DNA of 64,000 bases from an uncultured Nitrospiraceae bacterium (GTDB taxonomy: Bacteria; Nitrospirota; Thermodesulfovibrionia; Thermodesulfovibrionales; Dissulfurispiraceae), in assembly GCA_963727805.1 (NCBI GenBank), contig CAVSHF010000005.1:864001-928000 (forward strand). Direction: 5' to 3'. Below, piece by piece: positions 7,124-34,665 of the stretch. The notes under the pieces are model-generated. The model was given only the letters and a program-made list of their open reading frames with translations. It did no database searches and was not told the DNA's origin. Each line of letters opens with the position of its first letter. Position 1 is the stretch's first letter. A program made the position numbers and the translations under genes.

Positions 7124-7351
7124 TCATCTCAGTTTTGAAGCATACATTTTTTTAACTACCCTGCTTATGAAGCTATTCAATCCTCTTCCCTCAATAGCTA
7201 ACCGTTTCATTTGCTCAATATTGTTGTTGCCAGCACTGTGGTAGTTGTACAGATAAAGAGACCCATCTTTAAATTGAACTTTTATAAAGTCGACTCCAAT
7301 TTCATAAGCAATAACTCCCGAATCGCCTCCAAGATTCTTGTAACTGTCCAT
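7124..7351 (-). CDS. Small KTSC-like protein
   Basis: SGVIAYEIG..IKVQFKDGSLYLY..GRGLNSFI pattern; RBS GGAG. Confidence 0.6.
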   Translation of the reverse strand: MDSYKNLGGDSGVIAYEIGVDFIKVQFKDGSLYLYNYHSAGNNNIEQMKRLAIEGRGLNSFISRVVKKMYASKLR

Positions 7352-7695
7352 AATTATCTCCATTCTGGTTTGATGTTTAAGAATCTAAATATCACTATTA
7401 TGTAGCATGCTTATTGTTTCGAGACTAGCATATTGATTAAATAATTACAACTGTTAGTCAAACAACTAGTCAAAAGGGCGATGCAATATTAATCAAACTC
7501 ATACCGCCACAGGGATAGTAAGTGTCGCGGAAGAACAACGACTTAAACTCAGATGTCTCATTCAGCTTTAAGACAACCTCAGAAGGTGGCGAGCTGCGGC
7601 CATCATATATTGAACGGTCGGCTTCCATCGAAATTACTGGTCCGCATCATCTTTATAAGAACGCGCTGATACTAATAATCCCCTCCAGCCCTAAT

Positions 7696-7721
7696 TTATA
7701 ATGTCATATATGACATTATAA
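7696..7721. promoter_or_regulatory. Perfect 26-bp palindrome, candidate operator
   Basis: TTATAATGTCATA|TATGACATTATAA, about 65 bp upstream of HTH gene; degenerate ATATATGA copy follows. Confidence 0.65.
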
Positions 7722-7787
7722 TAATATATATGATATAATTAATTATAATATGGAATATAAATGTTATATTCGACAAAAGGCTTAAAG

Positions 7788-8030
7788 ATGGCAAAGATCG
7801 AGTGGACCGAAATCACCAAGGGACTCATTAAATCACAGTTGGCGCTGAGAAATATTTCTTACCTAGAGTTGTCAAGGAAACTGGACAAGATCGGTGTAAC
7901 GGAAACGCCACAGAGCATAAACAGCAAACTTAATAGGGGTAGTTTTCCCGCAACATTCTTTATTCAATGCTTGAGAGCTATCGGATGTAAGTTAACGATC
8001 AAATGTAAAGGGGATGATCTCTATGAATAG
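7788..8030 (+). CDS. DUF6471-like Cro/HTH regulator
   Basis: W...K.LIKSQL..R.ISY.EL..KL..IGV.ET..SI..K.NRG.F.A.FF.QCL.AIG pattern. Confidence 0.8.
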   Translation: MAKIEWTEITKGLIKSQLALRNISYLELSRKLDKIGVTETPQSINSKLNRGSFPATFFIQCLRAIGCKLTIKCKGDDLYE

Positions 8031-8126
8031 AACCGCGAATTTTAACAAATAGAAGAGTTGGAAGCTCAATAAAGGTATGTTCACATGGCTTTAGATAGGG
8101 AAAGTCATCAAAAAGGAGACTATATC

Positions 8127-8738
8127 ATGAAAAAAAGTATGATCGAGCTGACTACAGTACCTTCAAGTAAGAAGAACATCGAAGAATCAGTGTGCGAAAC
8201 ATCTGAGATTCGCTTTTATCGGGCAAATGAGAAACTCTATGGTGCCTTTAGCAATCTCTATCGCAGGAATATTCTTTTTGAGGGGCGGGTGTATCCTTCA
8301 GCTGAGCACGCTTACCAAGCAGGGAAAGCTAGAAAGGAAGCTGTAAGAGAATGGATATTGAGTGCGCCTTCTCCCGCCCTAGTGGCAATGGCGGCTCATG
8401 GACTTTACACTTGGGATATTGTGCCCAATTGGGCTGCTATTAAATTTGAACGTATGCAACAGGTACTGCATGCCAAATTTACTCAACACGATGACCTCTG
8501 TGAATTGCTGCTTTCTACTGGCGATGCGCGACTTGTTGAAGCGGGTACGGTCGATAGTCCTATTAACCGGCTATGGGGCGAAGTAAACGGTAAGGGTCAG
8601 AACATGTTGGGTGTCCTATTAATGAAATTGAGAGTAGCACTACAGAGCGAACTCGCTTTCCAAAAGGACATAACAAAGTGTAGAATTAACAATCTCAGAG
8701 TAATTGGAAGACAGGACACTATTTGTGTAGGGGAATAA
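8127..8738 (+). CDS. NADAR (YbiA-like) N-glycosidase / ADP-ribosylhydrolase
   Basis: FY..YGAFSN, SAEHAYQA.K, KFTQH..L..LL.TG, WG..GQNMLG..LM motifs; RBS AAGGAG. Confidence 0.9.
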   Translation: MKKSMIELTTVPSSKKNIEESVCETSEIRFYRANEKLYGAFSNLYRRNILFEGRVYPSAEHAYQAGKARKEAVREWILSAPSPALVAMAAHGLYTWDIVPNWAAIKFERMQQVLHAKFTQHDDLCELLLSTGDARLVEAGTVDSPINRLWGEVNGKGQNMLGVLLMKLRVALQSELAFQKDITKCRINNLRVIGRQDTICVGE

Positions 8739-8758
8739 CATTCTAATTTTTTCTCTAA

Positions 8759-10711
8759 TTGACTAACAAAGTCGTGGGAAAGCCTTATCAATCAGAACTA
8801 AACAAGCTACCCGAGACTTATCGTTGGGCAGTGTCACAAAGTATTGCCCCCCTTGTAAAAGCAATAAAGACATCAGCACATCTTCCTCTGATAGCAGTAG
8901 GGTCTGGTGGCTCGCTGTCTGCTGCCGAAGTTATGGTGTCGTGCCATGAACATTATTTTGGTGGTATTGCTCGGTCGGTCACGCCTTTGGAACTCATATC
9001 AGCGCTCCCTGCAAATGGACATGCATCTGTTTGGTTCTTCACCGCAAGCGGAGGGAATATAGACATTCAAAGAGCTTTCGAGCATACTCTGCTATTAGAG
9101 CCGAAGCAGGTATCTGCAATAGTTGGTCGATCTGGAAGTCCTATGGCGAAGCTTCTTGTTGAACATCAATACGCCGATATCTTTGAATTTGATTTGCCTT
9201 CGGGAAGAGATGGCTTCCTTGCTACAAGTTCCTTACTTGCATTCTCCATTTTGATTTGTCGGGGATACAGCGAAGCCCTGCCCGATAGTGATTTGCCGGC
9301 ATCATTTAGAAGTCTTCTGAAAAAGACGCTGCCTTCGAACTTAACATTAAATCAGATCGAGGACGCCAGCCAATCCCTTTGGCGACGGTCAACATTACAT
9401 GTTCTTTACAGCAATGAGCTCAAGGCGGCTGCAATTGATATCGAGTCGAAATTTATTGAAGCGGGCTTATGCTCAGTGCATTTGGCGGACTTCAGGAATT
9501 TTGCTCATGGCCGTCATCATTGGTTGGCTAAACATGAAGATACAAGTGCTATTCTCGCTTTATCAATACCTTCTGATGCTAACTTAGCAACCCAGACTAT
9601 TAAATTGATACCCAACAACATCCCCCGTCTTCACATTCCAGTACAGACAAGAGGCGCCTCGGCATGGCTTACAGGTTTAATTCTTTCATTGTATTTAACT
9701 GGATATGCCGGCAACGCAAGGAAAATTGATCCGGGACGTCCCGGCGTCCCATCTTTTGGGAGCAAGATATATGGTCTTAATACTATCTCTGGTTTTTTGA
9801 GTTCATTCAGCCGCATCGATGCGGCAATTAGACGAAAGGTAAGCACGCATAAAAGTCTTCTTTCTCCACGTCGAAAGAGGCTTTGGGGAAAAGCTTATCA
9901 TTCTTTTGAGAAACGTCTTTTGAACGCTTATTTTGGCGGCATAGTTATGGATTATGACGGCACCGTTGTTGACAGTCGTAATCGCTATGACCCGCCAACT
10001 GTGGAGATGAGTAAGCAAATAGTGCGATTGCTAAGGGAGGGGATTGTCATAGGTTTTGCTACCGGCAGAGGCAAATCTATTCGTAATGACCTTAGAAGCG
10101 TAATCCCTAAGAAATTCTGGGGACAAGTTTTGGTTGGCTATTATAACGGCGCTGAAATATCACTTCTCACTGATGGTAATGTTCCGGATGGATCGTCACC
10201 TCCTTGCGATGATTTGCAGAAATTACTAAATACCCTAGCTGAAAATATCGAAATAGCCTCCTTGGCAAAAGTGGCACCAAGAAAATTTCAACTAACCATT
10301 GAACCAACGAGTATGGTTCCAGAGACTTTTCTTTGGGAATTAGCACGGAGCGAATTGTGCGCAGCTGAAAATATGTCCGAGAATATCTATCGTTCTAGCC
10401 ATTCAATAGATATCTTGGCACGAGGAGTATCAAAGGTTTCTGTTATTGCGGAAGTTAGCAAGAGAATTGGGCGTAACGTCGACGTGCTAACCATAGGTGA
10501 TCGCGGCAAATGGCCAGGCAACGATTCTACTCTACTAACACACATTTATTCATTAAGTGTCGACGAAGTCTCCTTTTCGAAGGATACCTGTTGGAATGTA
10601 TGCCCTGCCGGTGTGCGGGGGCCGCAGGGAACACTTTATTATCTGAGTAACCTCCTGCCAGTCCCAAGATTGCGTTTCAGTGCCGTTAAGTTTTCTGCAA
10701 TGGGAGAGTAA
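8759..10711 (+). CDS. SIS (sugar-phosphate-binding) domains fused to HAD phosphatase
   Basis: GSGGS, TASGGN, FAHGRH SIS motifs; HAD motif I MDYDGT, II ATGRG, III/IV SK..GD.G..GND. Confidence 0.85.
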   Translation: MTNKVVGKPYQSELNKLPETYRWAVSQSIAPLVKAIKTSAHLPLIAVGSGGSLSAAEVMVSCHEHYFGGIARSVTPLELISALPANGHASVWFFTASGGNIDIQRAFEHTLLLEPKQVSAIVGRSGSPMAKLLVEHQYADIFEFDLPSGRDGFLATSSLLAFSILICRGYSEALPDSDLPASFRSLLKKTLPSNLTLNQIEDASQSLWRRSTLHVLYSNELKAAAIDIESKFIEAGLCSVHLADFRNFAHGRHHWLAKHEDTSAILALSIPSDANLATQTIKLIPNNIPRLHIPVQTRGASAWLTGLILSLYLTGYAGNARKIDPGRPGVPSFGSKIYGLNTISGFLSSFSRIDAAIRRKVSTHKSLLSPRRKRLWGKAYHSFEKRLLNAYFGGIVMDYDGTVVDSRNRYDPPTVEMSKQIVRLLREGIVIGFATGRGKSIRNDLRSVIPKKFWGQVLVGYYNGAEISLLTDGNVPDGSSPPCDDLQKLLNTLAENIEIASLAKVAPRKFQLTIEPTSMVPETFLWELARSELCAAENMSENIYRSSHSIDILARGVSKVSVIAEVSKRIGRNVDVLTIGDRGKWPGNDSTLLTHIYSLSVDEVSFSKDTCWNVCPAGVRGPQGTLYYLSNLLPVPRLRFSAVKFSAMGE

Positions 10712-10713
10712 AT

Positions 10714-11874
10714 GTGAATCATGCACTCGGACTCCGGGTACTTAGTGAAATAATGGGGTGGGATGATAATCAGGCAAGGACAGAGTTCAGGTGGCTATCC
10801 TTTATGTCTCGATACAAATATGATGGGTATGGAGACTATCTCGCAGGAGCACGTTTTATAGAAAGCCTCGCAACGTGGTTGCAACAATTCAATTTTACAG
10901 ATAGAAGTATTGCTTATGAATACATTAAGAATGATTTGATCTATATTAGTCCTGCTGAAATGCAAAGACTTATTGAAAAGTTGTTTCCTGAAGTTGTTCA
11001 GCGTCATTTAGCAAAGACAGTGGCAACTTATCTTAAAATACCGTCGCACAAGGTATGGGCTAGTAAGGAGACCGTTGAAGAATTTGACTGGCAAAAACGA
11101 AAGACTTTATTCATGAGCTTAAGCGATGGTGCAAGAATTGATATTTTCCGAAGGGTAAATGCTTCGACAATTTCTAATGAGCAGATTGTCGCAGCAACCC
11201 AGATAGATAAAACAAAGTGGGGAAGCTTAATAAAGGACTTAAGAGACGATCTGGATAAACTACGTCCCGGGCAGGGCAGGAATGCCACCGTGTCTCGAAT
11301 TTATCTGATAGATGATTTTACGGCATCAGGAACAACCTTGCTTAGGTATGATGAGAAAGAAGCAAATTATAAAGGCAAACTCGATAGATTTTATAATTCA
11401 ATCGATTTTGCTCAGAACGAATTGAAATCTGATTTTGGAGATATTCTTGATAAAAAATGGGAGCTTATTATCCATCATTATATCGGGACCGAACAGGTAA
11501 CTCATGTCATAAAGAAAAGGTATGAAGAATCACTATCCATAAAGGCAACGTGGAATCCAAGAGTCGACTTCACTTTTGGCATGATTCTCGCCCAAAATAC
11601 AGCATTGGACAAGCAGTCTAATCACCCATTCGTTGAACTATGTAAAAAATATTATGATCCTTCACTCGAAGGCAAGGGCTTGCACGCTGGTGCGAGCGGT
11701 AATCCTGACCTGACTTTTGGCTATGGTCAATGTGCGCTACCTCTCGTTCTCGAACACAATACGCCTAACAATTCACTACCTTTAATGTGGGCTGAGACCA
11801 GAGGGGCAAACGGACGACATGCTATGCGACCACTTTTTCGGCGAAGACAGAGATACAGTGATTTAGCCGAGTGA
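10714..11874 (+). CDS. Phosphoribosyltransferase-like protein (PRTase conflict-effector type)
   Basis: PRPP-binding loop IYLIDDFTASGTT; C-terminal FGYG..HNTPNNSLP..W..PLFRR. Confidence 0.75.
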   Translation: MNHALGLRVLSEIMGWDDNQARTEFRWLSFMSRYKYDGYGDYLAGARFIESLATWLQQFNFTDRSIAYEYIKNDLIYISPAEMQRLIEKLFPEVVQRHLAKTVATYLKIPSHKVWASKETVEEFDWQKRKTLFMSLSDGARIDIFRRVNASTISNEQIVAATQIDKTKWGSLIKDLRDDLDKLRPGQGRNATVSRIYLIDDFTASGTTLLRYDEKEANYKGKLDRFYNSIDFAQNELKSDFGDILDKKWELIIHHYIGTEQVTHVIKKRYEESLSIKATWNPRVDFTFGMILAQNTALDKQSNHPFVELCKKYYDPSLEGKGLHAGASGNPDLTFGYGQCALPLVLEHNTPNNSLPLMWAETRGANGRHAMRPLFRRRQRYSDLAE

Positions 11875-11880
11875 CAGAAT

Positions 11881-13821
11881 ATGGCAAATCCATTTGAAAA
11901 GAGGGCTACTGAGTATCTGCGTGATGACGCAGCGTTTCTTTCGGTAATCACACCGGAACCTTTGCACACTTTCTTTGAGCGTCATGCCAAAGCTGGAACT
12001 CTTTACGACAGGCTTTGCATGGTTATTGGAACCCCGGGTAGCGGCAAGACAACCATTGCCACTCTGCTTCAGTTGCGGACAGTTGAGACTTTACTGAATA
12101 GTTCAAACATAGAAGAATATAAAGTTCTATTACATGCATTAACAAGATGTGGCGTTGTAAGAGAAAAGAAAATTGAAATTGTTGGATGTCGGCTACCCCT
12201 TGAGTCAGAATATCGAGAATTCTGGGAACTCCCATACAAGGAAGATATCAAGATTGGATTGGTAAAGTCCTTTATTCAATCGAGAGCAATTATTTCTTGG
12301 ATGAAAAACCTAGAAGCAAACGGACGTTATAAGCTGGATAACATAAATATAGTGTATCGGGATGGGACTGAAGCTGCGTCTGAGGCAGTTGGGGGTGTTA
12401 CCGCCTCTAATGTCTTTAGCAAAGCGAAAATAGTTGAACGGTCAATATACGAAATAGGTGCCGCTCTCATCCCGCCAAGTGAGAGTTCCCTGAAGAATGA
12501 AGTTATAGCTCCATACCATCCTTTTGATATTATCAATTACTTTTTAATCGATGAATCCGCAACAGGGACGCAAAGAAAGCTAAAACCATTAGTGATGCTA
12601 GACGATGCACACACGCTTCATCCAAAACAACTTTTGGAGGTACAAAATTGGTTGGCTAGAAGGGAGATGACAATTGGACGTTGGCTATTGATGCGGCTAG
12701 ATGCGCAAACGCCTAAGGAGATTATTGATAGCTTCGGGACAGATGCTGACGTCGAGGGAGAATCAAGGATCAACAAGAGTCGCGAAATAACGCATATCTG
12801 GCTTCAAAGTGGTGTGGGACGGCGGAGGCAGCGGGAAGATTTCCGAAAAATGGCCAGGAGTATGGCAGATAAGTATTTACGGTTAATGCCCCTCTTTACT
12901 CGCCAAGGGATTTCTCGTTTCTCGGATATCCTGGGTATTAATGTAAAAGAAATATCTGATACTAAGATGAAAGATCTTGAAAAGCAAGTGAGCAAACTTC
13001 AGAAACAAAAGGGGATAAGTAATCCGCGAAGAGGAAGTTTAGAAGGTGATATCGACAGATATTTCGATAATTCTGATACAGCTGATAAGGGACAAGATGT
13101 CCGTTTAGCGATGCTTCATATAATGTTTCATCGCTATGCCAACAGGGTTCCACAAAAGAGCCTGTTTAATATAGGCGAAGAGGATTATGGACCGGACCCA
13201 TCTAAGCCACTAAAGGTAACATCTGCACTTGCCGACGGTGCAAGAATATTCTTACTGCATAAGTATAGTCGACCCTATTATTACGGTATAGATACTTTAT
13301 GCGATGGAAGTTCCGAAAATGCTGAATTGTTTCTGCAATTAGCAGGCAGATTAGTGGAAGCGGCTGAAGCTCGCATCATAAAATCGCCGAATGAGAATGC
13401 AGCACTGGCTCCTCAATATCAGCATCAATTGCTCACTGAACGTGCAAGAGAGATTGTTGACGACTGGTCTTTTCCAGCTTTTAACGAGGTCAAAGCCCTT
13501 TGCGCTCACATGGCGAAGCAGTGTGTAGAAAAATCTCTTGAACCTAATGCTCCTTTAGACGGGGGGGCAATAGCATTTGGAATATTGCAAGATGAGTTTG
13601 ACGAAATTGCGACAAATCATCCCGAGCTGGCAAAAGTCATTAAGTTTGGCGTGGCATATAACGCAATATCGTTAAGACATAGATATTTGGCGAAGAACAA
13701 GGAATGGTGTTTAATCGAACTAACAGGGCCTGTTCAAATTGTATATGGGTTAACTTTGAACAGAGGCGGCTTTTTAGAAAGACGCGTCCCAGATTTATTG
13801 AAGGCACTGGAGAAGAAATAG
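11881..13821 (+). CDS. ORC/CDC6-like (STAND-related) P-loop ATPase
   Basis: Walker A GTPGSGKTT, Walker B VMLDDAH, YYYG..L..S.N motif. Confidence 0.75.
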   Translation: MANPFEKRATEYLRDDAAFLSVITPEPLHTFFERHAKAGTLYDRLCMVIGTPGSGKTTIATLLQLRTVETLLNSSNIEEYKVLLHALTRCGVVREKKIEIVGCRLPLESEYREFWELPYKEDIKIGLVKSFIQSRAIISWMKNLEANGRYKLDNINIVYRDGTEAASEAVGGVTASNVFSKAKIVERSIYEIGAALIPPSESSLKNEVIAPYHPFDIINYFLIDESATGTQRKLKPLVMLDDAHTLHPKQLLEVQNWLARREMTIGRWLLMRLDAQTPKEIIDSFGTDADVEGESRINKSREITHIWLQSGVGRRRQREDFRKMARSMADKYLRLMPLFTRQGISRFSDILGINVKEISDTKMKDLEKQVSKLQKQKGISNPRRGSLEGDIDRYFDNSDTADKGQDVRLAMLHIMFHRYANRVPQKSLFNIGEEDYGPDPSKPLKVTSALADGARIFLLHKYSRPYYYGIDTLCDGSSENAELFLQLAGRLVEAAEARIIKSPNENAALAPQYQHQLLTERAREIVDDWSFPAFNEVKALCAHMAKQCVEKSLEPNAPLDGGAIAFGILQDEFDEIATNHPELAKVIKFGVAYNAISLRHRYLAKNKEWCLIELTGPVQIVYGLTLNRGGFLERRVPDLLKALEKK

Positions 13822-13823
13822 CC

Positions 13824-14921
13824 ATGGCCATTCCGTCTTGGCATAAGTCTATTGACCATTATGATAAAGATGTTAGCATTTTCTATGTACTTCACTTCTC
13901 GGAAGCACATAGAAAATGCCTGCTTATTGCAGGAGCCGGGTTCGACCCAAGGACAACTGTCCTCGCAAGAGAACTTTCGGCTACGCTAGGAAATCGATTG
14001 GAAGCCCTGTTTATAAGGGAAGAGCGTCCAAACCCAGATACTACACTTGTTGAGCGGGCTGAAAGAAACTTAAGTTCCCTTCAGCAGATGTGCCCAATTA
14101 ATCGGGTTCTCAGCATTGCTGTATTTTCTGATGATAATGCTGTTGTTGGAGGCATTAATGCAGTTTCTAACATAGTGAACGTCGACTTGGCATCCTATAC
14201 AGATATAATTATAGATTTCAGTGCGCTATCGATAGGCATCAGTTTTCCGGTGGTCAAGTATATTTACGATAGCCTTCGGAAGGATGGAACCAATACCAAT
14301 ATTCATTTGGCGGCTGTTTCCAATCCCGAATTGGATTCATTAATATCGTCTGTTCCAAATGATCGAGTAACAGAGGTGCGTGGATTCTCTCGAATTGATA
14401 AACTTTATGGAGAGGTCGAAAAAGCAAAACTTTGGCTTCCTCAATTGTCAGGAGGCAGGCACGAGACTCTAAGAATAATATTTGATGATGTTAAGCCTCA
14501 CGACTGCTGCCCAATTTTACCTTTCCCTTCCGATGACGCAAAGAAAGGCGATAACTTGGCGGCCAACTTTATATCAGAACTGGAAAATGAATGGAATGTT
14601 GATACAAGGAATTTTGTGTATGCTGATGAACGAAATCCGTTAGATATCTACAGAACGATTTTACGGATAGATGAGGAACGCAAGCCAGTTTTTGAAAGTT
14701 TCGGAGGTTCCGTTATAATTCTGTCGCCTCTCGGCAGCAAAATGCTTGCTATGGGAGCACTGATTGCTGCTTTAGAAAAACATTTTCCAGTGGTTTACGT
14801 TGAAGCTTTGGAGTATAATGTGGATTGGCATCGCGTAGATGCTATAACTGGAAATGCCTCAATGTCAGCTCACATTTGGTTATATGGTGAAGCCTATTTA
14901 AGAGATATTCGTAATGCCTAA
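13824..14921 (+). CDS. Hypothetical two-Rossmann-domain (CARF-like) protein
   Basis: IAGAGFDPR, IIIDFSAL, ILSPLGSK..A.G motifs reminiscent of CARF folds; translationally coupled to both neighbours. Confidence 0.55.
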   Translation: MAIPSWHKSIDHYDKDVSIFYVLHFSEAHRKCLLIAGAGFDPRTTVLARELSATLGNRLEALFIREERPNPDTTLVERAERNLSSLQQMCPINRVLSIAVFSDDNAVVGGINAVSNIVNVDLASYTDIIIDFSALSIGISFPVVKYIYDSLRKDGTNTNIHLAAVSNPELDSLISSVPNDRVTEVRGFSRIDKLYGEVEKAKLWLPQLSGGRHETLRIIFDDVKPHDCCPILPFPSDDAKKGDNLAANFISELENEWNVDTRNFVYADERNPLDIYRTILRIDEERKPVFESFGGSVIILSPLGSKMLAMGALIAALEKHFPVVYVEALEYNVDWHRVDAITGNASMSAHIWLYGEAYLRDIRNA

Positions 14922-15990
14922 AGATATGAGAAACATTTCCCATAAAAATAAACCGAGAGTGTTTGGCACAGGGCTCTTTGCTCTGGATGTCGTTCTTAGT
15001 GCAGATCCAGCGGAGCCTATTTATTGTTGGGCCGGCGGCACCTGTGGCAATGTTTTGATAATATTGAGTTATCTGGGCTGGAGAGCATCTCCCATCGCAC
15101 GGCTTAACGGGGATCCCTCATCGATACGTGTAAAAGACGATATGTCTCGATGGGATGTGAGCCTTGCTTTTGCTAAGCAGTCTCCGACTGCTACTACACC
15201 TATTATTGCTCAGCAAAACTATCGTGATAAAGGCGGAGATGCGACCCATAAATTTGCTTTTACCTGTCCGATGTGTGGTGCGTCATTACCTTTTTACAAG
15301 GCAGTTCCAAATATTGCAGCGAAGCGCATTGCTGAGCAAATAGAGAATCCTCACGTATTCTTTTTCGATAGAGTATCGGTTAGTGCGCTAACCTTAGCGA
15401 AAAGGTGTAAAGAACTCGGAGCGGTTATTTTCTTTGAACCATCTGCTAAAGGTGACCCCAAGCAATTCTCGGAGGCGGTACAGTTGGCTCATGTCATTAA
15501 GTACTCGCAAGAACGTTTTAGTTTTTTTGTTGACGAGTATAAATCGGCTGGAGAATTGCCCTTCATAGAGATTCAAACGATGGGACGGGAAGGATTAATA
15601 TTTCGTTCAAGTCTGCCTAATGCGAAATCAGAGGAATGGACAAAGCTACCGGCAACGGCTGTAGAACAGGTCGAAGATACGTGTGGTTGCGGTGACTGGA
15701 CCACTGCTGGCCTTATATCGAAATTGTGTGATGTTGAAGGAGTAGAAGGGCTTAAAACAAAGTCTTTGAAAGATATTATGCGTGCTTTGAATTTTGGACA
15801 GGCTCTAGCTTCTTGGAATTGCAGGTTTGTGGGAGCTCGGGGCGGAATGTATCGAGTTGACAGGAGAAGATTTGAAAGAGAAATATCGGAAATTACCAAT
15901 GAGAGTGTCCAAATGACAAGAACGCATACGAAGAAATTATACGATGAGACACCAATGAGAATGATTTGTCCATCCTGCTGCGGAACCTAA
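14914..15990 (+). CDS. PfkB/ribokinase-family kinase with Zn-ribbon-like insert
   Basis: GGTCGNV and DTCGCGD signatures; CPMC insert and C-terminal CPSCC. Confidence 0.85.
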   Translation: MPKDMRNISHKNKPRVFGTGLFALDVVLSADPAEPIYCWAGGTCGNVLIILSYLGWRASPIARLNGDPSSIRVKDDMSRWDVSLAFAKQSPTATTPIIAQQNYRDKGGDATHKFAFTCPMCGASLPFYKAVPNIAAKRIAEQIENPHVFFFDRVSVSALTLAKRCKELGAVIFFEPSAKGDPKQFSEAVQLAHVIKYSQERFSFFVDEYKSAGELPFIEIQTMGREGLIFRSSLPNAKSEEWTKLPATAVEQVEDTCGCGDWTTAGLISKLCDVEGVEGLKTKSLKDIMRALNFGQALASWNCRFVGARGGMYRVDRRRFEREISEITNESVQMTRTHTKKLYDETPMRMICPSCCGT

Positions 15991-16021: not shown

Positions 16022-17077
16022 TCAATACCCAATTTCAGCAAGATCGCGAATCGGATTTATTTGTCCTTCCAGATAGTTTCTGAGGACATCCTCTTTTTGT
16101 TCAGTATAGTCTTTCAATATTGAATAAGATGTGATATCTACTGCCTTATAGAACATATCATAGTTACCACTAAGACTGGTTGTCCAAGGGGCGGGATAGG
16201 ACATTTTCGTGTAGATTTCCGAAGATAAAATTGATGCCAGCCATTTACACTGAAAATTATCTTTACCTTTATTCAAGATGTAATCAATATTAAGATCCTC
16301 AGAAAGCTTTCGAGACTTCTTCTTATCGGGCTTTGTCAGGATGACATTGAGAGATTCTATTCCTAGCTCTGCTAATTTCCTGCAAAGGGAAACTAAGCCT
16401 TCATTGAAACCAAAATGAGGATATCCTACGAAATGTTTACCATAAGAGGGACTTTTTTGTTTGACATCGCAAGCATACAATTTATCCTTGTGCTCAATAA
16501 AAAAGTCCACATCATATCTGAATCGGAATAGTTCAGCAAATAATCTGCTTAAAGCGATCTCTTTAATAAGATTAATCTTGGTACGGTTATACTGGATTAA
16601 GACCCTAACAAGCTTCTCCCATCTTTTATTATCTTCCTTTTCTTCCACTGGGGCTTTTTCTTTCCACCATCCACCAGTCAGTTTCTTTTTATTCTTAAGC
16701 CAACGATTATTGATTTCGGGAATATCAGATTGCGATATGGTCAAACAATCAAAGGACTTTTCTGCTTCATTGAAAGAAACTAAAAACACCCTAACTTGTC
16801 TGTTCAGAAAATGCACAAATAGTTTTATATCTAAATCTGTTACTAAGTTATCAGGATTTGATAGCTTATATGCCTCCCCGACACATTGATCCGGAAACCA
16901 CCAATTAGATGAATAAGACAAAGAAGAATCCGATAAAATATCCTTTGCGAATGCCCTTTCAATCAATATTCCTTCTATTCTCTCTACTTTGTTATGTCTG
17001 AATGTGCCAATCAATTTGTTCACATCGTTAAAGTCAATGGATTCAAGAAGCACGTCTTGATTTAACCACTTTGTCAT
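16022..17077 (-). CDS. Putative PD-(D/E)xK nuclease
   Basis: DVDFFI...CDVKQK; homologous to 19845-21341; RBS AGGAGG. Confidence 0.55.
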   Translation of the reverse strand: MTKWLNQDVLLESIDFNDVNKLIGTFRHNKVERIEGILIERAFAKDILSDSSLSYSSNWWFPDQCVGEAYKLSNPDNLVTDLDIKLFVHFLNRQVRVFLVSFNEAEKSFDCLTISQSDIPEINNRWLKNKKKLTGGWWKEKAPVEEKEDNKRWEKLVRVLIQYNRTKINLIKEIALSRLFAELFRFRYDVDFFIEHKDKLYACDVKQKSPSYGKHFVGYPHFGFNEGLVSLCRKLAELGIESLNVILTKPDKKKSRKLSEDLNIDYILNKGKDNFQCKWLASILSSEIYTKMSYPAPWTTSLSGNYDMFYKAVDITSYSILKDYTEQKEDVLRNYLEGQINPIRDLAEIGY

Positions 17078-29694: not shown

Positions 29695-30924
29695 TTAAAT
29701 GCCCCTCTTATCCCCTGTTCCTTTTTTCGTTATCGCCCCGATCCTTACATTGTTTCTGGCAATCAAATCTCTTATGTCCCCTCTCTCATCAAGATGTAGA
29801 AAATTCCCCGTTGTTTTCAAGACACTTTCTCTACAAACTGCTATATGTCGCCTCTTTAGATGTTCGATAACGCTCTGTATCTCATCACAGGTTATAGCGT
29901 AATACTCCATACTGAAGGGATCAGCAATAACCTTATAAAAAAAGGGCAGGTAGAGCAGATCTTTTGTCAATTCTGTCTTTCCTAATTCATTCCTTTCGCA
30001 GAATGTTATAAGATTTTCGGGGAAATTCTCAAAGATCATTATTAATCCCGAAAATAACAGGTACTGAATCTTTAATGGGATATCATAGAAAAGAATATGC
30101 CTCCGCTTAATGACAGGAAAGTCAATTCGTTGTGCCATGGATTCATGGTCCAGTAACCCCTTATCGAATCCCCAGTTGTAGGCAATTTTTATAAACTGCT
30201 GCAAGACACTGTAAAACAGAAATGAATAGGCATAGCGATCGCCGAAACTGAAGATACCAGTCTCCAAAATTTTATATAGCTCTTTTATGGCCCTCAGCCC
30301 ATATGAGTCTGGGTCTACAAACTCTGGTTCCGATTTTGAGAAGTCAAATCCGCACTTATAACAGATCGGGAAATTCTTGTAATAATAACTTCTTCTCAGC
30401 GTTATCGGTATACCGCACTGGGAGCACCGGTCTAATAAGAAGCATCCATGAACAATGCAGGCAGTCGAAAAAGAAAGCCTCCACCTCTTCCTAAAATATC
30501 TGGCGTGGTGCGCTTTTAAGCATAGTGGGCAAAACCTCAGACCGTATCCCTTCGTTATCCTGCTGCGGATAACCAGGGGCTGTATGAATGGCATGCTTGT
30601 GGCTGATATCTCTTCGGCAAGATACCCCTGGTAGGACTTGAGAGTAAGGTTGCAAAGTATTTCATTGCTCAAGAGACACTTGTGCTCAAGCGCCTCCAAA
30701 AGCTTTTGATCAGGTGAAATATCCACATCTCTTGTCCATAAGATATTTTTCCATTCGGGCAGATAAAGGTTTACAAATGTGGCAGGATCCGTCAAGTGAG
30801 CAAGGGCAGTTCTAGTCAGCCATGAACTGAGAAGTTCATCATCCTGAGGAGTAAGACAATATCGGAATTTGTTATTTGCGAAATTGATACGCTTGCTGTC
30901 TATCTTATAAGCAAGAAGGCTCAT
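29695..30924 (-). CDS. tniQ: TniQ family target-selector adaptor
   Basis: P.DDELLSSWL.R.A; FCPLCL..YFR..WR..C..H..L.D.C..C; ATGA overlap with tnsC. Confidence 0.9.
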   Translation of the reverse strand: MSLLAYKIDSKRINFANNKFRYCLTPQDDELLSSWLTRTALAHLTDPATFVNLYLPEWKNILWTRDVDISPDQKLLEALEHKCLLSNEILCNLTLKSYQGYLAEEISATSMPFIQPLVIRSRITKGYGLRFCPLCLKAHHARYFRKRWRLSFSTACIVHGCFLLDRCSQCGIPITLRRSYYYKNFPICYKCGFDFSKSEPEFVDPDSYGLRAIKELYKILETGIFSFGDRYAYSFLFYSVLQQFIKIAYNWGFDKGLLDHESMAQRIDFPVIKRRHILFYDIPLKIQYLLFSGLIMIFENFPENLITFCERNELGKTELTKDLLYLPFFYKVIADPFSMEYYAITCDEIQSVIEHLKRRHIAVCRESVLKTTGNFLHLDERGDIRDLIARNNVRIGAITKKGTGDKRGI

Positions 30925-31826
30925 ACATCTACCAGTGCAAGCCCGCGTCTCTGGGATGGCCTGATAAATCCACACTCCTTTATAATATCCTCTGTTATCT
31001 TCTCGCTACCTGATTTTATCCCAAATATGGCCGCCTCGCTGATGACGCTGATTATCTCCCCAATTAATCCCTCGCTTAAAGCCAAGACCGTCCTGCCTAT
31101 TTTGCTGTTTGTCGATATCTTGGAGAGTTTTCTTAACGGCAACATCATTTCTATGCTTGCAAGCAGGGATGCGTAATCCGCATTGAGTCTCCAAAGCGGG
31201 AGCAACATTGGCCTGAATCTACTACTGATCTGCATGTCGGTACTGGTGGCATTTAGAGCATCCTTTATACCAACAAGGACTATAGGTAGCATCAGCGCAT
31301 TGCTGATATTCTTCAGCGCGTTCATAAAAGCTTTCTGCTTTGGAACCGACCCACTTAAGATATTGTGGATCTCATCTACAATGAGCACCCCAACGCCCAT
31401 ACTTTCAAAATGATATTTTATTTCTGATGCCTTTTTAGTTAAAGAATCGCTCTTTCTGTGGGGAATTAGTATTGTGTCCAGGATTGCATCATAAAGACCG
31501 TTCGGATCAGGAGTGATCGGTGCCTGCACACAAACTACCGACATTGCCGGTTCTTCCCTTCCATCCGTTGGCAGATGTAATCTCTCGAATTTCTTAACCA
31601 GACTCGTTTTGCCGTTATGACTGTCACCAATAATCAAAAGACATGGCATCCTCGATTTCTTCGGTTCATTTAACAGGTCCTCCATCTTCAGGAGAATTAC
31701 TTCAGCCTTTGGATACATAATAAATTTGTCCGCCTTTATATATCGTATCCGTTCGCGGTCAGGGCTCCACAGCAGTTCCTCTGCTTCCGGGCTTAGAACT
31801 ATTTTATCCTGCACAATATCCATCAA
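30921..31826 (-). CDS. tnsC: TnsC/TniB AAA+ ATPase
   Basis: Walker A GDSHNGKT, Walker B LIVDEIH, QISSRF, SEG.IG. Confidence 0.93.
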   Translation of the reverse strand: MMDIVQDKIVLSPEAEELLWSPDRERIRYIKADKFIMYPKAEVILLKMEDLLNEPKKSRMPCLLIIGDSHNGKTSLVKKFERLHLPTDGREEPAMSVVCVQAPITPDPNGLYDAILDTILIPHRKSDSLTKKASEIKYHFESMGVGVLIVDEIHNILSGSVPKQKAFMNALKNISNALMLPIVLVGIKDALNATSTDMQISSRFRPMLLPLWRLNADYASLLASIEMMLPLRKLSKISTNSKIGRTVLALSEGLIGEIISVISEAAIFGIKSGSEKITEDIIKECGFIRPSQRRGLALVDV

Positions 31827-33781
31827 CGTCTTTCATCCTCATCTGACTCTCTGCGAATCACTTCTATGTCTTTGAAAGGCTTGGGGTTTGTAAAAATATC
31901 ATCAACCCGAGCTTCCACCGCTTTCCGAGTGCTTTCAGGTTCGTCCTTAACAGCCTTATGAAGAGGTTCGGCTTTCCCTTCGTCCGTCTGTCCCGTGCCT
32001 TTCCCCATTTTCTCCTTATGGTGCTGTTTGCCGGTACGCTGTCTCCTGACGGCCTTAGTTTTTTTGACGGCTTCATCCTCGATTTTCTTCAGTTCCGCAT
32101 TTGCCTTGAAAATATCGTACTCATTGTAATCTTCCATGTTCTTATCTTTGAGATATTTCTGGCTCTTTCTTAGGTCCCATATCGATATCGGAGGGAAGGC
32201 AACGTTTCTGTAAGGAATCTCAAAATACTCCTTCAGATCAGGAGCATAAAAATACAAAATGCTTATATCATACGGATTATACTTGAATATGTATTTCGTC
32301 CTTTTCTTGCCGGGCGTTTCCATTTCACTATATTTTCTGAGGACATCGCTATAATAATGTATGTGTTCCCATACCACATTGGCCCTCTGGATAGTCCGCT
32401 CTATAGATGGGAAAAGAGAGATTCTCAACTTGCGTGCCTCTTCTCCCTGGATTATTTCCGGAAGCCCGGTACCGGGTGTAGTTTCGTCCCCGAAGATACC
32501 CATCTCATATTTCTTGTACGGCATCATATAACCTATGCCTGAGTGAGGACTCTTATGGTATTTGTTGACGATAAGTTGCGTAGCCCATTTTTCAGTTTCT
32601 TTTATCGTCATACAGGCCGTTGCCTCCGAATCGTATTCTCCTTTGGCCTGCGGATTCGAGAATGTCGTCCCGGGAAGAGCATGCACTTCATTGTTTAAAG
32701 TCTCAATAAACCTCTCGATGTGGCCACCGTATTTTGGTTGTCGGCGAGGCCTGAACTTTACCTCCAAATTATTATCTTCACAAAATCTCTTCAGATCTTT
32801 TCCTCTGTACCAGCTGGCATTGTCGGTATATATGATGATATTTTTTGTCAATCCCCATACGCTCCACTCTCCCTCGACACCTACTCTAGCCAAAACTTCC
32901 TGTTTCGGCATAGCTCCCATATAAATGCATTGTCCGATCGTGAAAAAACTCGGGTGGTCCACTGAAAAATCAAACCCATATACCGACCTGCTAAAAACAT
33001 CTTCAGCAACAACTGCATATGCTTTTCCGATGGATTGTCTGTATAGTTCATCGACAATCAAGAGATCAAGCGGCGTCTCATCTATTTCAATAACATCCAG
33101 TGGATGTTCGACAATAAAAGAGCCAACTATCGGATCGTAAATGGTCCTGGCTTTGGCAGCTCCTTCTGTACGCTTCATGATTTCTCTCTTTGATATCTCA
33201 CCTATTCTGTTTTTGATAGTATTTTTGTGAGGAGCCTTTAATTTCGCATTTTTGCACTTTACCTTTACGTCTTCCTGAAGTTTCTTAAGCCTCAGTCTTT
33301 TCCCCTTCTGTAAATATTCCTCGATAGTTTCGGCCACGACGACATCAACTGCCGGATCTATTCTGTGGGTACCCTTTCCTCCTCTTTTGTTATAGTTCGG
33401 GGCTAGGGAGCTCAACTGCCCTGTTGCTTCATATCTTTTTATCCAGTCATATAAAGTAACATCAGTTAGACCAAATGCCTCTGCTCTTGCTATAACCTCT
33501 TTTTTTGTCCTGTCAGACCTCAGAAGAGGCTTTATTATCTCGTATCTTTGCTTCGCTATTTCCCAGTGCTCTTCCTCAATGTGCTCTGCAGGTTCCACTT
33601 TGTTATTTTCGGCCGGTGCGCTCGCCGGGGTCATCCTGAGCTGTAAGATGGGGTAGAGCCCTGTCTCGCCGCTTTCCGGGTCTCTCAGGAGAACTTCCTT
33701 GAAATTGACTGCGTTGATGACCTCGTGCTTCTTGTCACCTATGTAAACGATGCTCCCTTTGGATAACGATAATCCTTTCAT
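31823..33781 (-). CDS. tnsB: TnsB/TniA DDE transposase
   Basis: EIDETP, DVFSR, YTDN, GHIER; Mu-transposase-like C-terminal region; ATGA overlap with tnsA. Confidence 0.95.
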   Translation of the reverse strand: MKGLSLSKGSIVYIGDKKHEVINAVNFKEVLLRDPESGETGLYPILQLRMTPASAPAENNKVEPAEHIEEEHWEIAKQRYEIIKPLLRSDRTKKEVIARAEAFGLTDVTLYDWIKRYEATGQLSSLAPNYNKRGGKGTHRIDPAVDVVVAETIEEYLQKGKRLRLKKLQEDVKVKCKNAKLKAPHKNTIKNRIGEISKREIMKRTEGAAKARTIYDPIVGSFIVEHPLDVIEIDETPLDLLIVDELYRQSIGKAYAVVAEDVFSRSVYGFDFSVDHPSFFTIGQCIYMGAMPKQEVLARVGVEGEWSVWGLTKNIIIYTDNASWYRGKDLKRFCEDNNLEVKFRPRRQPKYGGHIERFIETLNNEVHALPGTTFSNPQAKGEYDSEATACMTIKETEKWATQLIVNKYHKSPHSGIGYMMPYKKYEMGIFGDETTPGTGLPEIIQGEEARKLRISLFPSIERTIQRANVVWEHIHYYSDVLRKYSEMETPGKKRTKYIFKYNPYDISILYFYAPDLKEYFEIPYRNVAFPPISIWDLRKSQKYLKDKNMEDYNEYDIFKANAELKKIEDEAVKKTKAVRRQRTGKQHHKEKMGKGTGQTDEGKAEPLHKAVKDEPESTRKAVEARVDDIFTNPKPFKDIEVIRRESDEDERR

Positions 33782-34425
33782 CGGTTTGCCTTCAAAATTG
33801 TGCTGTTGGTTAAAGGCTTGTTCAGGTCTGTCACCAGGATCTTTGTCCAGACAAGATGCCAGATCGAAGGGAGTATCCACGCACGCTCAAGCCGGTCTTT
33901 CGCTATGCCATCGAGAATATCCGATACACTCATGCCATTTCCATCAAGATTAATAAGTATCCGGTCTTTATACGATCCGAGAAGTTTTGGCGCTTCTCTG
34001 TATCCGTAAAGAAAATTAAGATTATCGAGGCGCTGGCCTCTAATATCGGTGTCGAGGACCACCTTGAAGTCCATACCATTAGCTGCGGCGTATTCCTCAC
34101 ATGTCGCAAACTTGAGCTTTAACAGAGGAGCCTTCTCCGGATCCAGGAGGTCCTTCTCGGATTTGACTTCCATGAGAAGCGGCTTTCTGCCAGTTTCCGG
34201 TTTGTAATATATAAGGCAATCCGGATAATAAGGACTGCTCGGCCTTCTCGGATTCGGCACTTCAACCTGTTGAGCCACGTATCTTTCTATCTCATCCTCA
34301 AACTCAAGCGTCTGATAAAAATCCCGTTCTACAGGAGACTCGTAATCCACGTGTCCGCCGTTTTTCATACTGTAAAAGTAGCCCGTCGGCACTCTGTTGC
34401 CAGGTGGTATTTTCCTGATCTTCAT
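33778..34425 (-). CDS. tnsA: TnsA endonuclease
   Basis: YESPVERD...LEF, YYPD, EVK motifs. Confidence 0.92.
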   Translation of the reverse strand: MKIRKIPPGNRVPTGYFYSMKNGGHVDYESPVERDFYQTLEFEDEIERYVAQQVEVPNPRRPSSPYYPDCLIYYKPETGRKPLLMEVKSEKDLLDPEKAPLLKLKFATCEEYAAANGMDFKVVLDTDIRGQRLDNLNFLYGYREAPKLLGSYKDRILINLDGNGMSVSDILDGIAKDRLERAWILPSIWHLVWTKILVTDLNKPLTNSTILKANR

Positions 34426-34469
34426 GAGTAAATTATACTTTGTCCGGAGTCCATTTGCAACTTTTGTAA

Positions 34470-34665
34470 ATTAGTTAATCTATTTATTGTATTATTGTAA
34501 TTGGTTAAGCTATATTATGTTAAAGTTAAGTTATTTATTGTCTCTTTCTGTTTTTTTGAAAACGAGACCATATTTTGTCGTATCTTATTGATTTAAGGTG
34601 ATATAAAGATGTGTTATGGGAGGCAGAGCGATAAAATTAAGTTAAGCTATCTTGTGGGAATGACA
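34470..34665 (-). repeat. Transposon end: terminal TGTCATT plus four TnsB-binding-type repeats
   Basis: Minus strand: CCCACAAGATAGCTTAACTTAA (34637-34658), GACAATAAATAACTTAACTTTA (34521-34542), AACATAATATAGCTTAACCAAT (34500-34521), TACAATAAATAGATTAACTAAT (34470-34491). Confidence 0.85.

Follow-up and report, generated by a model that had tools for sequence, protein, structure and literature searches.

The stretch of DNA analysed here, a 64,000-nucleotide window on contig CAVSHF010000005.1 of an uncultured Nitrospiraceae bacterium, carries a six-gene cassette (positions 8085 to 15990) belonging to a widespread bacterial cluster which is probably an anti-virus suicide switch. The fixed core of this cluster consists of four genes, encoding a fused SIS-HAD protein, a phosphoribosyltransferase (PRTase) of the PRTase-CE family, an ORC/Cdc6-like ATPase and a CARF6 protein, and the two other genes, for a PfkB kinase and a NADAR protein, are dedicated, alternating partners of that core. 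In distant relatives a DNA methylase is found where the sugar-phosphate enzymes stand here, a replacement hinting at a sugar-based alarm signal. Coordinates are those of the window, except where the prefix C5: marks contig coordinates of the host genome (G000).

All six genes lie on the forward strand. They encode, in this order, a NADAR N-glycosidase of a subfamily dedicated to the cassette (accessory; 8085-8738; PF08719, E 4e-25); a double-SIS sugar-phosphate isomerase/deglycase fused to a type IIB HAD phosphatase (core; 8759-10711; PF08282, E 7e-8 for the HAD part); the PRTase-CE, a predicted effector (core; 10714-11874; PF24390, E 2e-23); the ORC/Cdc6-like P-loop ATPase, a predicted switch (core; 11881-13821; PF24389, E 8e-8); CARF6, a tandem CARF pseudo-dimer predicted to sense a ligand (core; 13824-14921; PADLOC PDLC01916, E 4e-100); and a PfkB kinase, also of a dedicated subfamily (accessory; 14914-15990; Pfam PfkB, E 5e-10). 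The five junctions measure 20, 2, 6, 2 and -8 bp, with starts at TTG 8759, GTG 10714 and ATG 13824, and the host genome holds a single copy of the cassette. A preliminary description of the window had proposed these co-oriented genes with the same gaps and overlap, and both the open reading frames (ORFs) and their junctions agree with it; profile matches in Pfam or PADLOC bear out the domains it had named (NADAR, HAD, PRTase, ORC-CDC6-like, CARF and PfkB). Its SIS domain, on which Pfam is silent for the window protein, was recovered through a profile of 65 sequences and in the ESM Atlas (0.92).

The sugar-phosphate enzymes have intact active sites, and by their catalytic motifs the cassette enzymes look active; conservation was counted over unique sequences from both deep lineages of the cassette. 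In the SIS part, the GSGGS loop (residues 48-52), E234 and H250 are kept in 122/122 sequences, and E234 and H250 are 16 residues apart, the spacing reported to separate catalytic base and acid in GlmS and FrlB (PMC10285752). Judged by these Glu and His residues and by the phosphate-binding Ser loop, the domain is a double-SIS of the GlmS/FrlB type. The 65-sequence profile matches the double-SIS protein 2aml over residues 8-248 (E 1.3e-5); direct profile matches to E. coli FrlB (probability 17) and to GlmS were weak, and a single-sequence phmmer search with the SIS part gave no match. The fused HAD domain presents all four motifs (D398, D400, T/S435, K559, D581 and D589) and has its nearest relatives among Cof/sucrose-phosphatase IIB enzymes. 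Kinase residues D255, G258, G260 and D261 (the base) are kept in 89/89 PfkB sequences, whose nearest relatives in the PDB are fructokinases and ketohexokinase; two CxxC pairs of this protein may bind zinc. The NADAR, 35% identical to YbiA, keeps E74 and E152 in 76/76 sequences and has an invariant Asn161 just ahead of its WG motif.

In the PRTase, the loop for phosphoribosyl pyrophosphate (PRPP), D200 D201..G206, keeps D200 in 110/111 and D201 in 111/111 sequences, and a Gx14PNN motif like that of retron III-A PRTases lies at 336-353. Walker A K56 and Walker B D241 of the ATPase are kept in 117/117 (ESM Atlas 0.99); neither the PRTase nor the ATPase profile found a solved close relative. The model of CARF6 (365 residues; predicted local distance difference test, pLDDT, 93.8) shows two CARF units and no effector domain. 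Its best match is Can1 (Z 14.9, root-mean-square deviation 3.1, 232 aligned residues), followed by Can2, Csm6, Cam1 and Card1; Foldseek returned only matches of low template-modelling score, to universal-stress-protein-like and transporter-domain folds. The PADLOC label of this family speaks of three CARF domains, and a triple CARF is ruled out by the two Rossmann units of the model.

The cassette is conserved well beyond its host. An alignment of the CARF protein retrieved 228 relatives from a species-genome collection, and the best 80 of the 228 were analysed. In 68 of these 80 loci the genes follow the order SIS-HAD, PRTase, ATPase, CARF, PfkB seen in the window; PfkB is shifted to the front in five and seven are incomplete (four at contig ends, three internal), while CARF6 directly follows the ATPase in all 80. 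Their record titles name Alpha- and Gammaproteobacteria, Acidobacteria, Planctomycetes, Desulfuromonadales, Myxococcota-type bacteria, Bacteroidota and others. The cassette is thus conserved across many phyla; a chance cluster was rejected. The distribution is patchy, with 3 of 301 genomes of the class (the window genome included) and none of four congeners. The SIS profile matches 1047 clusters (at 50% identity) with E 1e-30 or better. Among 72,556 plasmids, 19 carry the CARF gene and all 19 also carry SIS-HAD and PRTase; the ATPase was found on 18 by tblastn and on the 19th by a hidden Markov model (HMM), PfkB on 17 and a NADAR of at least 60% identity on nine. The cassette is also present on five distinct IMG/VR contigs (in the set L084, L085, L200-L203); annotated phages gave no ATPase match, and no RNA holder is listed. 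Two loci show unusual proteins, a PRTase-ATPase read-through ORF of 1019 residues (L046:6922-9981) and a SIS-HAD extended at its N-terminus by about 940 residues that match no Pfam family (L065:370-5133); a search for a longer, fused form of the PRTase found none, which is weak evidence.

The surroundings of these loci are those of mobile and defence genes. After removal of seven near-duplicate loci, 254 flank ORFs were selected, and the scan covered the first 140 of them, from 40 loci. Mobile-element genes flank the cassette in 22 loci, defence-type genes in 11 (strict assignment) or 16 (loose), and one or the other in 32 of the 40, compared with two of 20 evenly spaced stretches of the host genome (77 ORFs; one with mobile genes and one with a toxin). 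No sugar transporter, dehydrogenase, catabolic gene or sugar-responsive regulator was recurrent in the scanned flanks, which speaks against the possibility, raised in the preliminary description, that homologues sit in ordinary sugar-metabolism loci; the two checks that it had proposed, on conserved gene order and on mobile or defence context, both came out in favour of the cassette.

The relation of PfkB and NADAR to the core depends on where the search starts. NADAR adjoins only 2 of the 80 CARF-seeded loci, which suggested an unlinked passenger, and this idea was overturned by the reciprocal, NADAR-seeded search: on plasmids, 9/9 NADARs of at least 60% identity stand beside the core, and in metagenomes a core gene lies near 73 of the best 80 NADAR matches (52 of the 55 loci of at least 5 kb). 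The commonest metagenomic form (37/80) consists of NADAR, SIS-HAD, PRTase, ATPase and CARF without PfkB. It constitutes a deep sister lineage, whose ATPases share about 22% identity with that of the window, and an HMM search found no PfkB in these loci, 23 of which have 1.5 kb or more of sequence to either side. Conversely, all 17 plasmid matches of PfkB are in core-bearing records. Among 118 loci with SIS-HAD, ATPase and CARF, a set seeded on PfkB or NADAR and hence biased, the PRTase is present in 118, with PfkB only in 72, NADAR only in 38, both in eight and neither in none; the 19 plasmids divide into 10, 2, 7 and 0, respectively. Because the PRTase accompanies SIS-HAD in all counted loci and PfkB and NADAR alternate, the core is the four-gene set and the window is a member with the complete set. 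The six-gene unit of the preliminary description is therefore real in the sense that all six genes are present and their exact order is repeated in L138, but the fixed unit is smaller. One 20-kb locus (L159) is an exception, having the same NADAR subfamily and no core gene. L194 (NZ_CP088118) and L195 (NZ_CP117256) each have a single NADAR/SIS-HAD/PfkB module with a PRTase-ATPase-CARF triplet on either side. The two triplets are divergent, each deep lineage being represented by one, which suggests that one module can serve two switches.

A comparison with the wider ORC-CDC6-like/CARF6 family shows what the sugar enzymes replace. PF24389 matches 22 of 401 genomes of the phylum; 14 of these 22, all of non-sugar type, form our sample (L204-L217), two others being sugar-type and six more left out. 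CARF6 follows the ATPase in 14/14 of these distant loci and a DNA methylase is adjacent in 13/14. Their effectors vary: PRTase-CE in five, and a calcineurin-like protein, HD-CE, a fused TIR and a fused kinase in one each; among the remaining ATPases one has a ParA-like domain fused to it, and the effector scan did not extend to four long ones. One locus of this sample also has a dUTPase and one stands beside ThyX. PRTase-CE is accompanied by a methylase alone in four loci, and in L206 neither a methylase nor a sugar gene was seen. The window operon contains no DNA methyltransferase, and only 6 of 82 sugar-type loci have one at a distance of 1.5 kb or less; the contrast with 13/14 indicates that the sugar enzymes occupy the methylase slot. 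In a quick ATPase tree with long branches and 16 chosen sugar-type rows, the sugar-type ATPases are one side of a branch with a Shimodaira-Hasegawa-like approximate likelihood ratio (SH-aLRT) of 100. The constant part of the family is thus the ATPase with CARF6, the PRTase being a swappable effector, and the general architecture is a marker enzyme, a swappable effector, the ATPase and CARF6, with the sugar-phosphate enzymes filling the marker slot. The window copy has the features of these cassettes, namely an intact ATPase, CARF6 directly after it and PRTase-CE before it; the methylase as a feature (13/14 sister loci) was taken from the present sample rather than from a publication. The preliminary description had proposed a PRTase, ATPase and CARF conflict core that acquired a ribose-phosphate module. 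This core is indeed conserved and found in a mobile and defence context, but only its last two members are constant, and the sugar enzymes do join it, but by replacing a DNA methylase and with SIS-HAD fixed while the others alternate.

A defence role of some kind is, on these grounds, very probable. The full model that we put forward, a metabolite-gated cassette of the abortive-infection type, is more tentative, and we place it a little short of even probability. In this model, PfkB, phosphorylating a ketose or ketosamine, or NADAR, releasing ribose-phosphate or adenosine diphosphate ribose (ADP-ribose) from an N-glycoside, would supply a sugar phosphate, which the GlmS/FrlB-type SIS would isomerise or (de)aminate and from which the fused HAD would take off a phosphate. 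In combination, the sugar enzymes would determine how much of an unusual sugar or sugar-nucleotide ligand is present, a part comparable to that of the methylase in sister cassettes, which would furnish methylated nucleotides. Once infection disturbs the metabolism of nucleotides or of nicotinamide adenine dinucleotide (NAD), the effector-less CARF6 pseudo-dimer would bind this ligand and gate the ORC/Cdc6-like ATPase, and the latter would unleash the PRTase-CE, which would consume PRPP or cleave nucleotides so that the cell stalls. That the PRTase is the toxic effector is rather likely, given the logic of the effector slot and precedent: the PRTase of retron Eco11, for which the Gx14PNN motif is noted, is reported to lower PRPP by about half once activated (PMC12746101), and the toxicity of ShosT is reported to require PRPP binding. 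PUA-Cal-HAD, whose trigger is described as a methylated nucleotide, offers a precedent for a marker enzyme that generates the ligand. An input role for the module is favoured because PRTase-CE works elsewhere without it, and the interchange of PfkB and NADAR would be explained by one plausible common output, a phosphorylated sugar for SIS-HAD.

Several observations weigh against this model or the context on which it draws. The flank control comes from one genome with gene categories assigned by hand, and one copy of the cassette (G078) has housekeeping genes on either side (dnaE/accA and an SRP54-type GTPase). The absence of plasmids having neither PfkB nor NADAR (0/19) has a chance probability of about 0.2 (hypergeometric), so that by itself this is a weak argument. 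The PRTase is never swapped in the sugar lineage (118/118), which fits a chemical coupling to the module, although a single origin also explains it. Finally, HAD and PfkB act against one another, and no direction follows from the model.

Such a chemical coupling is the basis of an alternative that we consider possible, though doubtful, which casts the sugar enzymes as antidotes to, or erasers of, the PRTase product, an N-(5-phosphoribosyl) adduct on an amine (a base, a nucleotide or a lysine). NADAR would cleave it directly as an N-glycoside, or it would first rearrange to an Amadori ketosamine, which an FrlD-like PfkB and an FrlB-like SIS would remove; HAD would be a phospho-switch, and CARF6 may read the adduct itself. 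This would account for the alternation of NADAR and kinase and for the company that PRTase and SIS-HAD keep in 118/118 loci, and it agrees with the motif-level match to FrlB/FrlD chemistry, with the pairing of NADAR and PRTase reported for DS-32 and with NADARs described as antitoxins and damage-control glycosidases. Yet the four distant loci in which PRTase-CE has a methylase alone, and L206 with neither, need no such antidote, the profile match to FrlB is weak and the PfkB is nearer to fructokinase and ketohexokinase in the PDB. We find it unlikely that SIS-HAD is instead a co-effector, isomerising and dephosphorylating pentose or hexose phosphates to block the remaking of PRPP, with PfkB later resetting the pool: an isomerase-phosphatase fusion beside a ketose-type kinase would suit this scheme, and HAD domains are reported to deplete nucleotides as effectors in other systems, but it leaves unexplained the methylase slot, the dedicated NADAR and the lineage without PfkB (38/118).

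The methylase slot is precisely what a third scheme would exploit, a discrimination of DNA similar to restriction-modification (R-M), where the module adds or removes a sugar-type DNA mark, the ATPase senses unmarked DNA and CARF6 is structural. The module stands in place of DNA methylases and NADARs are reported to act on ADP-ribosylated guanine in DNA; however, the cassette contains no glycosyltransferase or ADP-ribosyltransferase (ART). SIS, HAD-IIB and PfkB are, moreover, families of small-molecule enzymes, and we regard this scheme as very unlikely. Only slightly better placed, and still quite improbable, is a function outside defence, as a mobile operon for metabolite repair or sugar-amine catabolism in which the ATPase and CARF are regulatory. 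Housekeeping sugar-enzyme families account for three of the six genes, pairs like FrlB/FrlD are described as catabolic, and the G078 copy sits among housekeeping genes. The flanks, lacking any recurrent catabolic companion, argue otherwise, as do the other three genes, members of conflict families that in related loci stand with TIR, HD-CE and calcineurin effectors.

The cassette travels in the window as transposon cargo, as had been proposed. An intact Tn7-like element of 44.7 kb (C5:853950-898665, or window -10050 to 34665) has TGT...ACA borders, motifs repeated at its ends and a target duplication of 5 bp; its left end lies about 10 kb ahead of the window start, and profiles and end repeats place TniQ, TniB, a TnsB-sized ORF, TnsA and the right end at 29695-34665 on the reverse strand. 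The TnsA, TnsB-sized, TniB and TniQ genes occupy 29.7-34.4 kb, the TnsB-sized ORF having a weak helix-turn-helix (HTH) match only. Insertion occurred about 320 bp after a gene for a miaA-like isopentenyl pyrophosphate (IPP) transferase, and miaA may be the attachment site. Other cargo comprises RHS proteins, HEPN AbiV, a metallophosphoesterase, DUF6765, a TM0106 nuclease, a C5 R-M set with Vsr, PDC-S42, a nucleoside deoxyribosyltransferase, an S24 peptidase and an HD/YfbR protein. The R-M system that had been noted next door is present, 1.5 kb downstream of the cassette, but a methylase so near in only 6/82 relatives rules it out as a conserved cassette part. A 351-residue ORF (16022-17077, reverse strand) converges on the operon and adjoins the C5 methylase; it matched no family, and a PD-(D/E)xK-like motif spotted by eye suggests that it may be a nuclease. 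Divergent from the operon is a 79-residue ORF (7124-7363, reverse strand) with partial matches to PHROG 17428 and 24656, which we take to resemble a KTSC-type domain.

Upstream of the operon, inspection of the sequence gave the perfect 26-bp palindrome (7696-7721) and the small HTH gene (7761-8030, forward strand) that had been described, the latter encoding a DUF6471 protein (E 1.5e-25), a probable regulator. The palindrome is one of four perfect palindromes of at least 26 bp in the 3.9-Mb genome and covers the -35 element of a sigma70-like promoter at 7710-7739 (score 11/12); it is a probable operator for the DUF6471 protein. Both are ruled out as conserved parts of the cassette: the palindrome sequence is local to the window copy, with no match in 111 loci other than its own, and the DUF6471 gene is in 0/85 cassette loci and 0/150 other genomes of the class. 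In other loci, two families of small genes recur directly upstream of NADAR (L133, L152, L157, L188 and L194-L196; L140, L141, L164, L178, L180 and L183), one of XRE-type HTH genes and a second with one weak TacA-like match. NADAR would seem to be accompanied by differing regulators from locus to locus.

The cassette gives a handle on a widespread class of CARF-gated ATPase systems, and it provides a context for NADAR and PfkB subfamilies now annotated as housekeeping enzymes. The swaps of methylase for sugar enzymes and of kinase for NADAR narrow the chemistry to a few ribose or ketose-phosphate compounds. If this is right, CARF sensing would extend beyond cyclic oligoadenylates and glycation-type chemistry would be linked to bacterial immunity. 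A bolder proposition, in our opinion improbable though worth stating, is that the immune second messenger here belongs to a new class: a compound of sugar-phosphate or phosphoribosyl/Amadori type, made and erased by an isomerase, a phosphatase, a kinase and an N-glycosidase instead of a cyclase, and read by a stand-alone tandem CARF which would switch an ORC/Cdc6-like ATPase and a PRPP-draining effector.

In agreement with the preliminary description, the six-gene form matches no characterised system: no named PADLOC system was matched, and none of its proteins scores above the threshold of any anti-phage model in NCBIfam. The CARF6 and PRTase-CE families were reportedly defined by Makarova 2020 and Nicastro 2023. 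Neither PADLOC nor NCBIfam (June 2026) nor literature searches outside these two papers showed the variant with the sugar module, its dedicated subfamilies of NADAR and PfkB or the alternation between them; the two papers have about even chances of drawing the neighbourhood. Nor did the literature searches find an experimental study or anti-phage test of the cassette, and the accessible parts of PMC4012209, PMC12669027, PMC12839542, PMC10853773, PMC13712802 and PMC9503650 contain no such operon.

Among known systems, the type III-A retron (Retron-Eco11) resembles the cassette by its PRTase (PADLOC PRTase_III-A, E 6e-19, with the PRPP loop and Gx14PNN motif in the window protein), but the controller here is the ATPase and CARF pair, and no reverse transcriptase family was found among the 29 ORFs of window 1-31 kb or the 140 flank ORFs. 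DS-32 (DefensePredictor), reported as a validated anti-phage unit, combines NADAR and PRTase; unlike the cassette it has two genes, the window PRTase matches no NCBIfam model, and the window NADAR reaches 57.7 bits with the DS32_2 equivalog (other members 62-64 bits) against a cut-off of 240. ShosTA is described as having a toxic PRPP-binding PRTase; the cassette has no DprA-like partner. DarT1-NADAR differs in that the cassette contains no DarT and that no ART-sized neighbour recurs in 80 NADAR loci. Can1 and the CARF effectors of type III CRISPR systems have the tandem CARF fold in one chain, but CARF6 has no nuclease domain and no cas genes alongside (none in the 140 flank ORFs; a Cas10 check by Csm1_B alone gave no match in the single host genome). 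FrlB/FrlD and GlmS share the double SIS with Glu and His 16 residues apart, PfkB being the parallel of FrlD; here SIS is fused to HAD, without a transporter and in the setting of a conflict cassette. The closest relatives are the predicted ORC-CDC6-like/CARF6/effector/methylase cassettes (PF24389, PF24390, PADLOC CARF6), which have the same PRTase-ATPase-CARF6 block in the same order, and since profiles already cover the component families and the triplet, the kind of system is known in prediction. The window copy differs from them by having SIS-HAD plus PfkB and/or NADAR for the methylase and by belonging to a separate branch of the ATPase.

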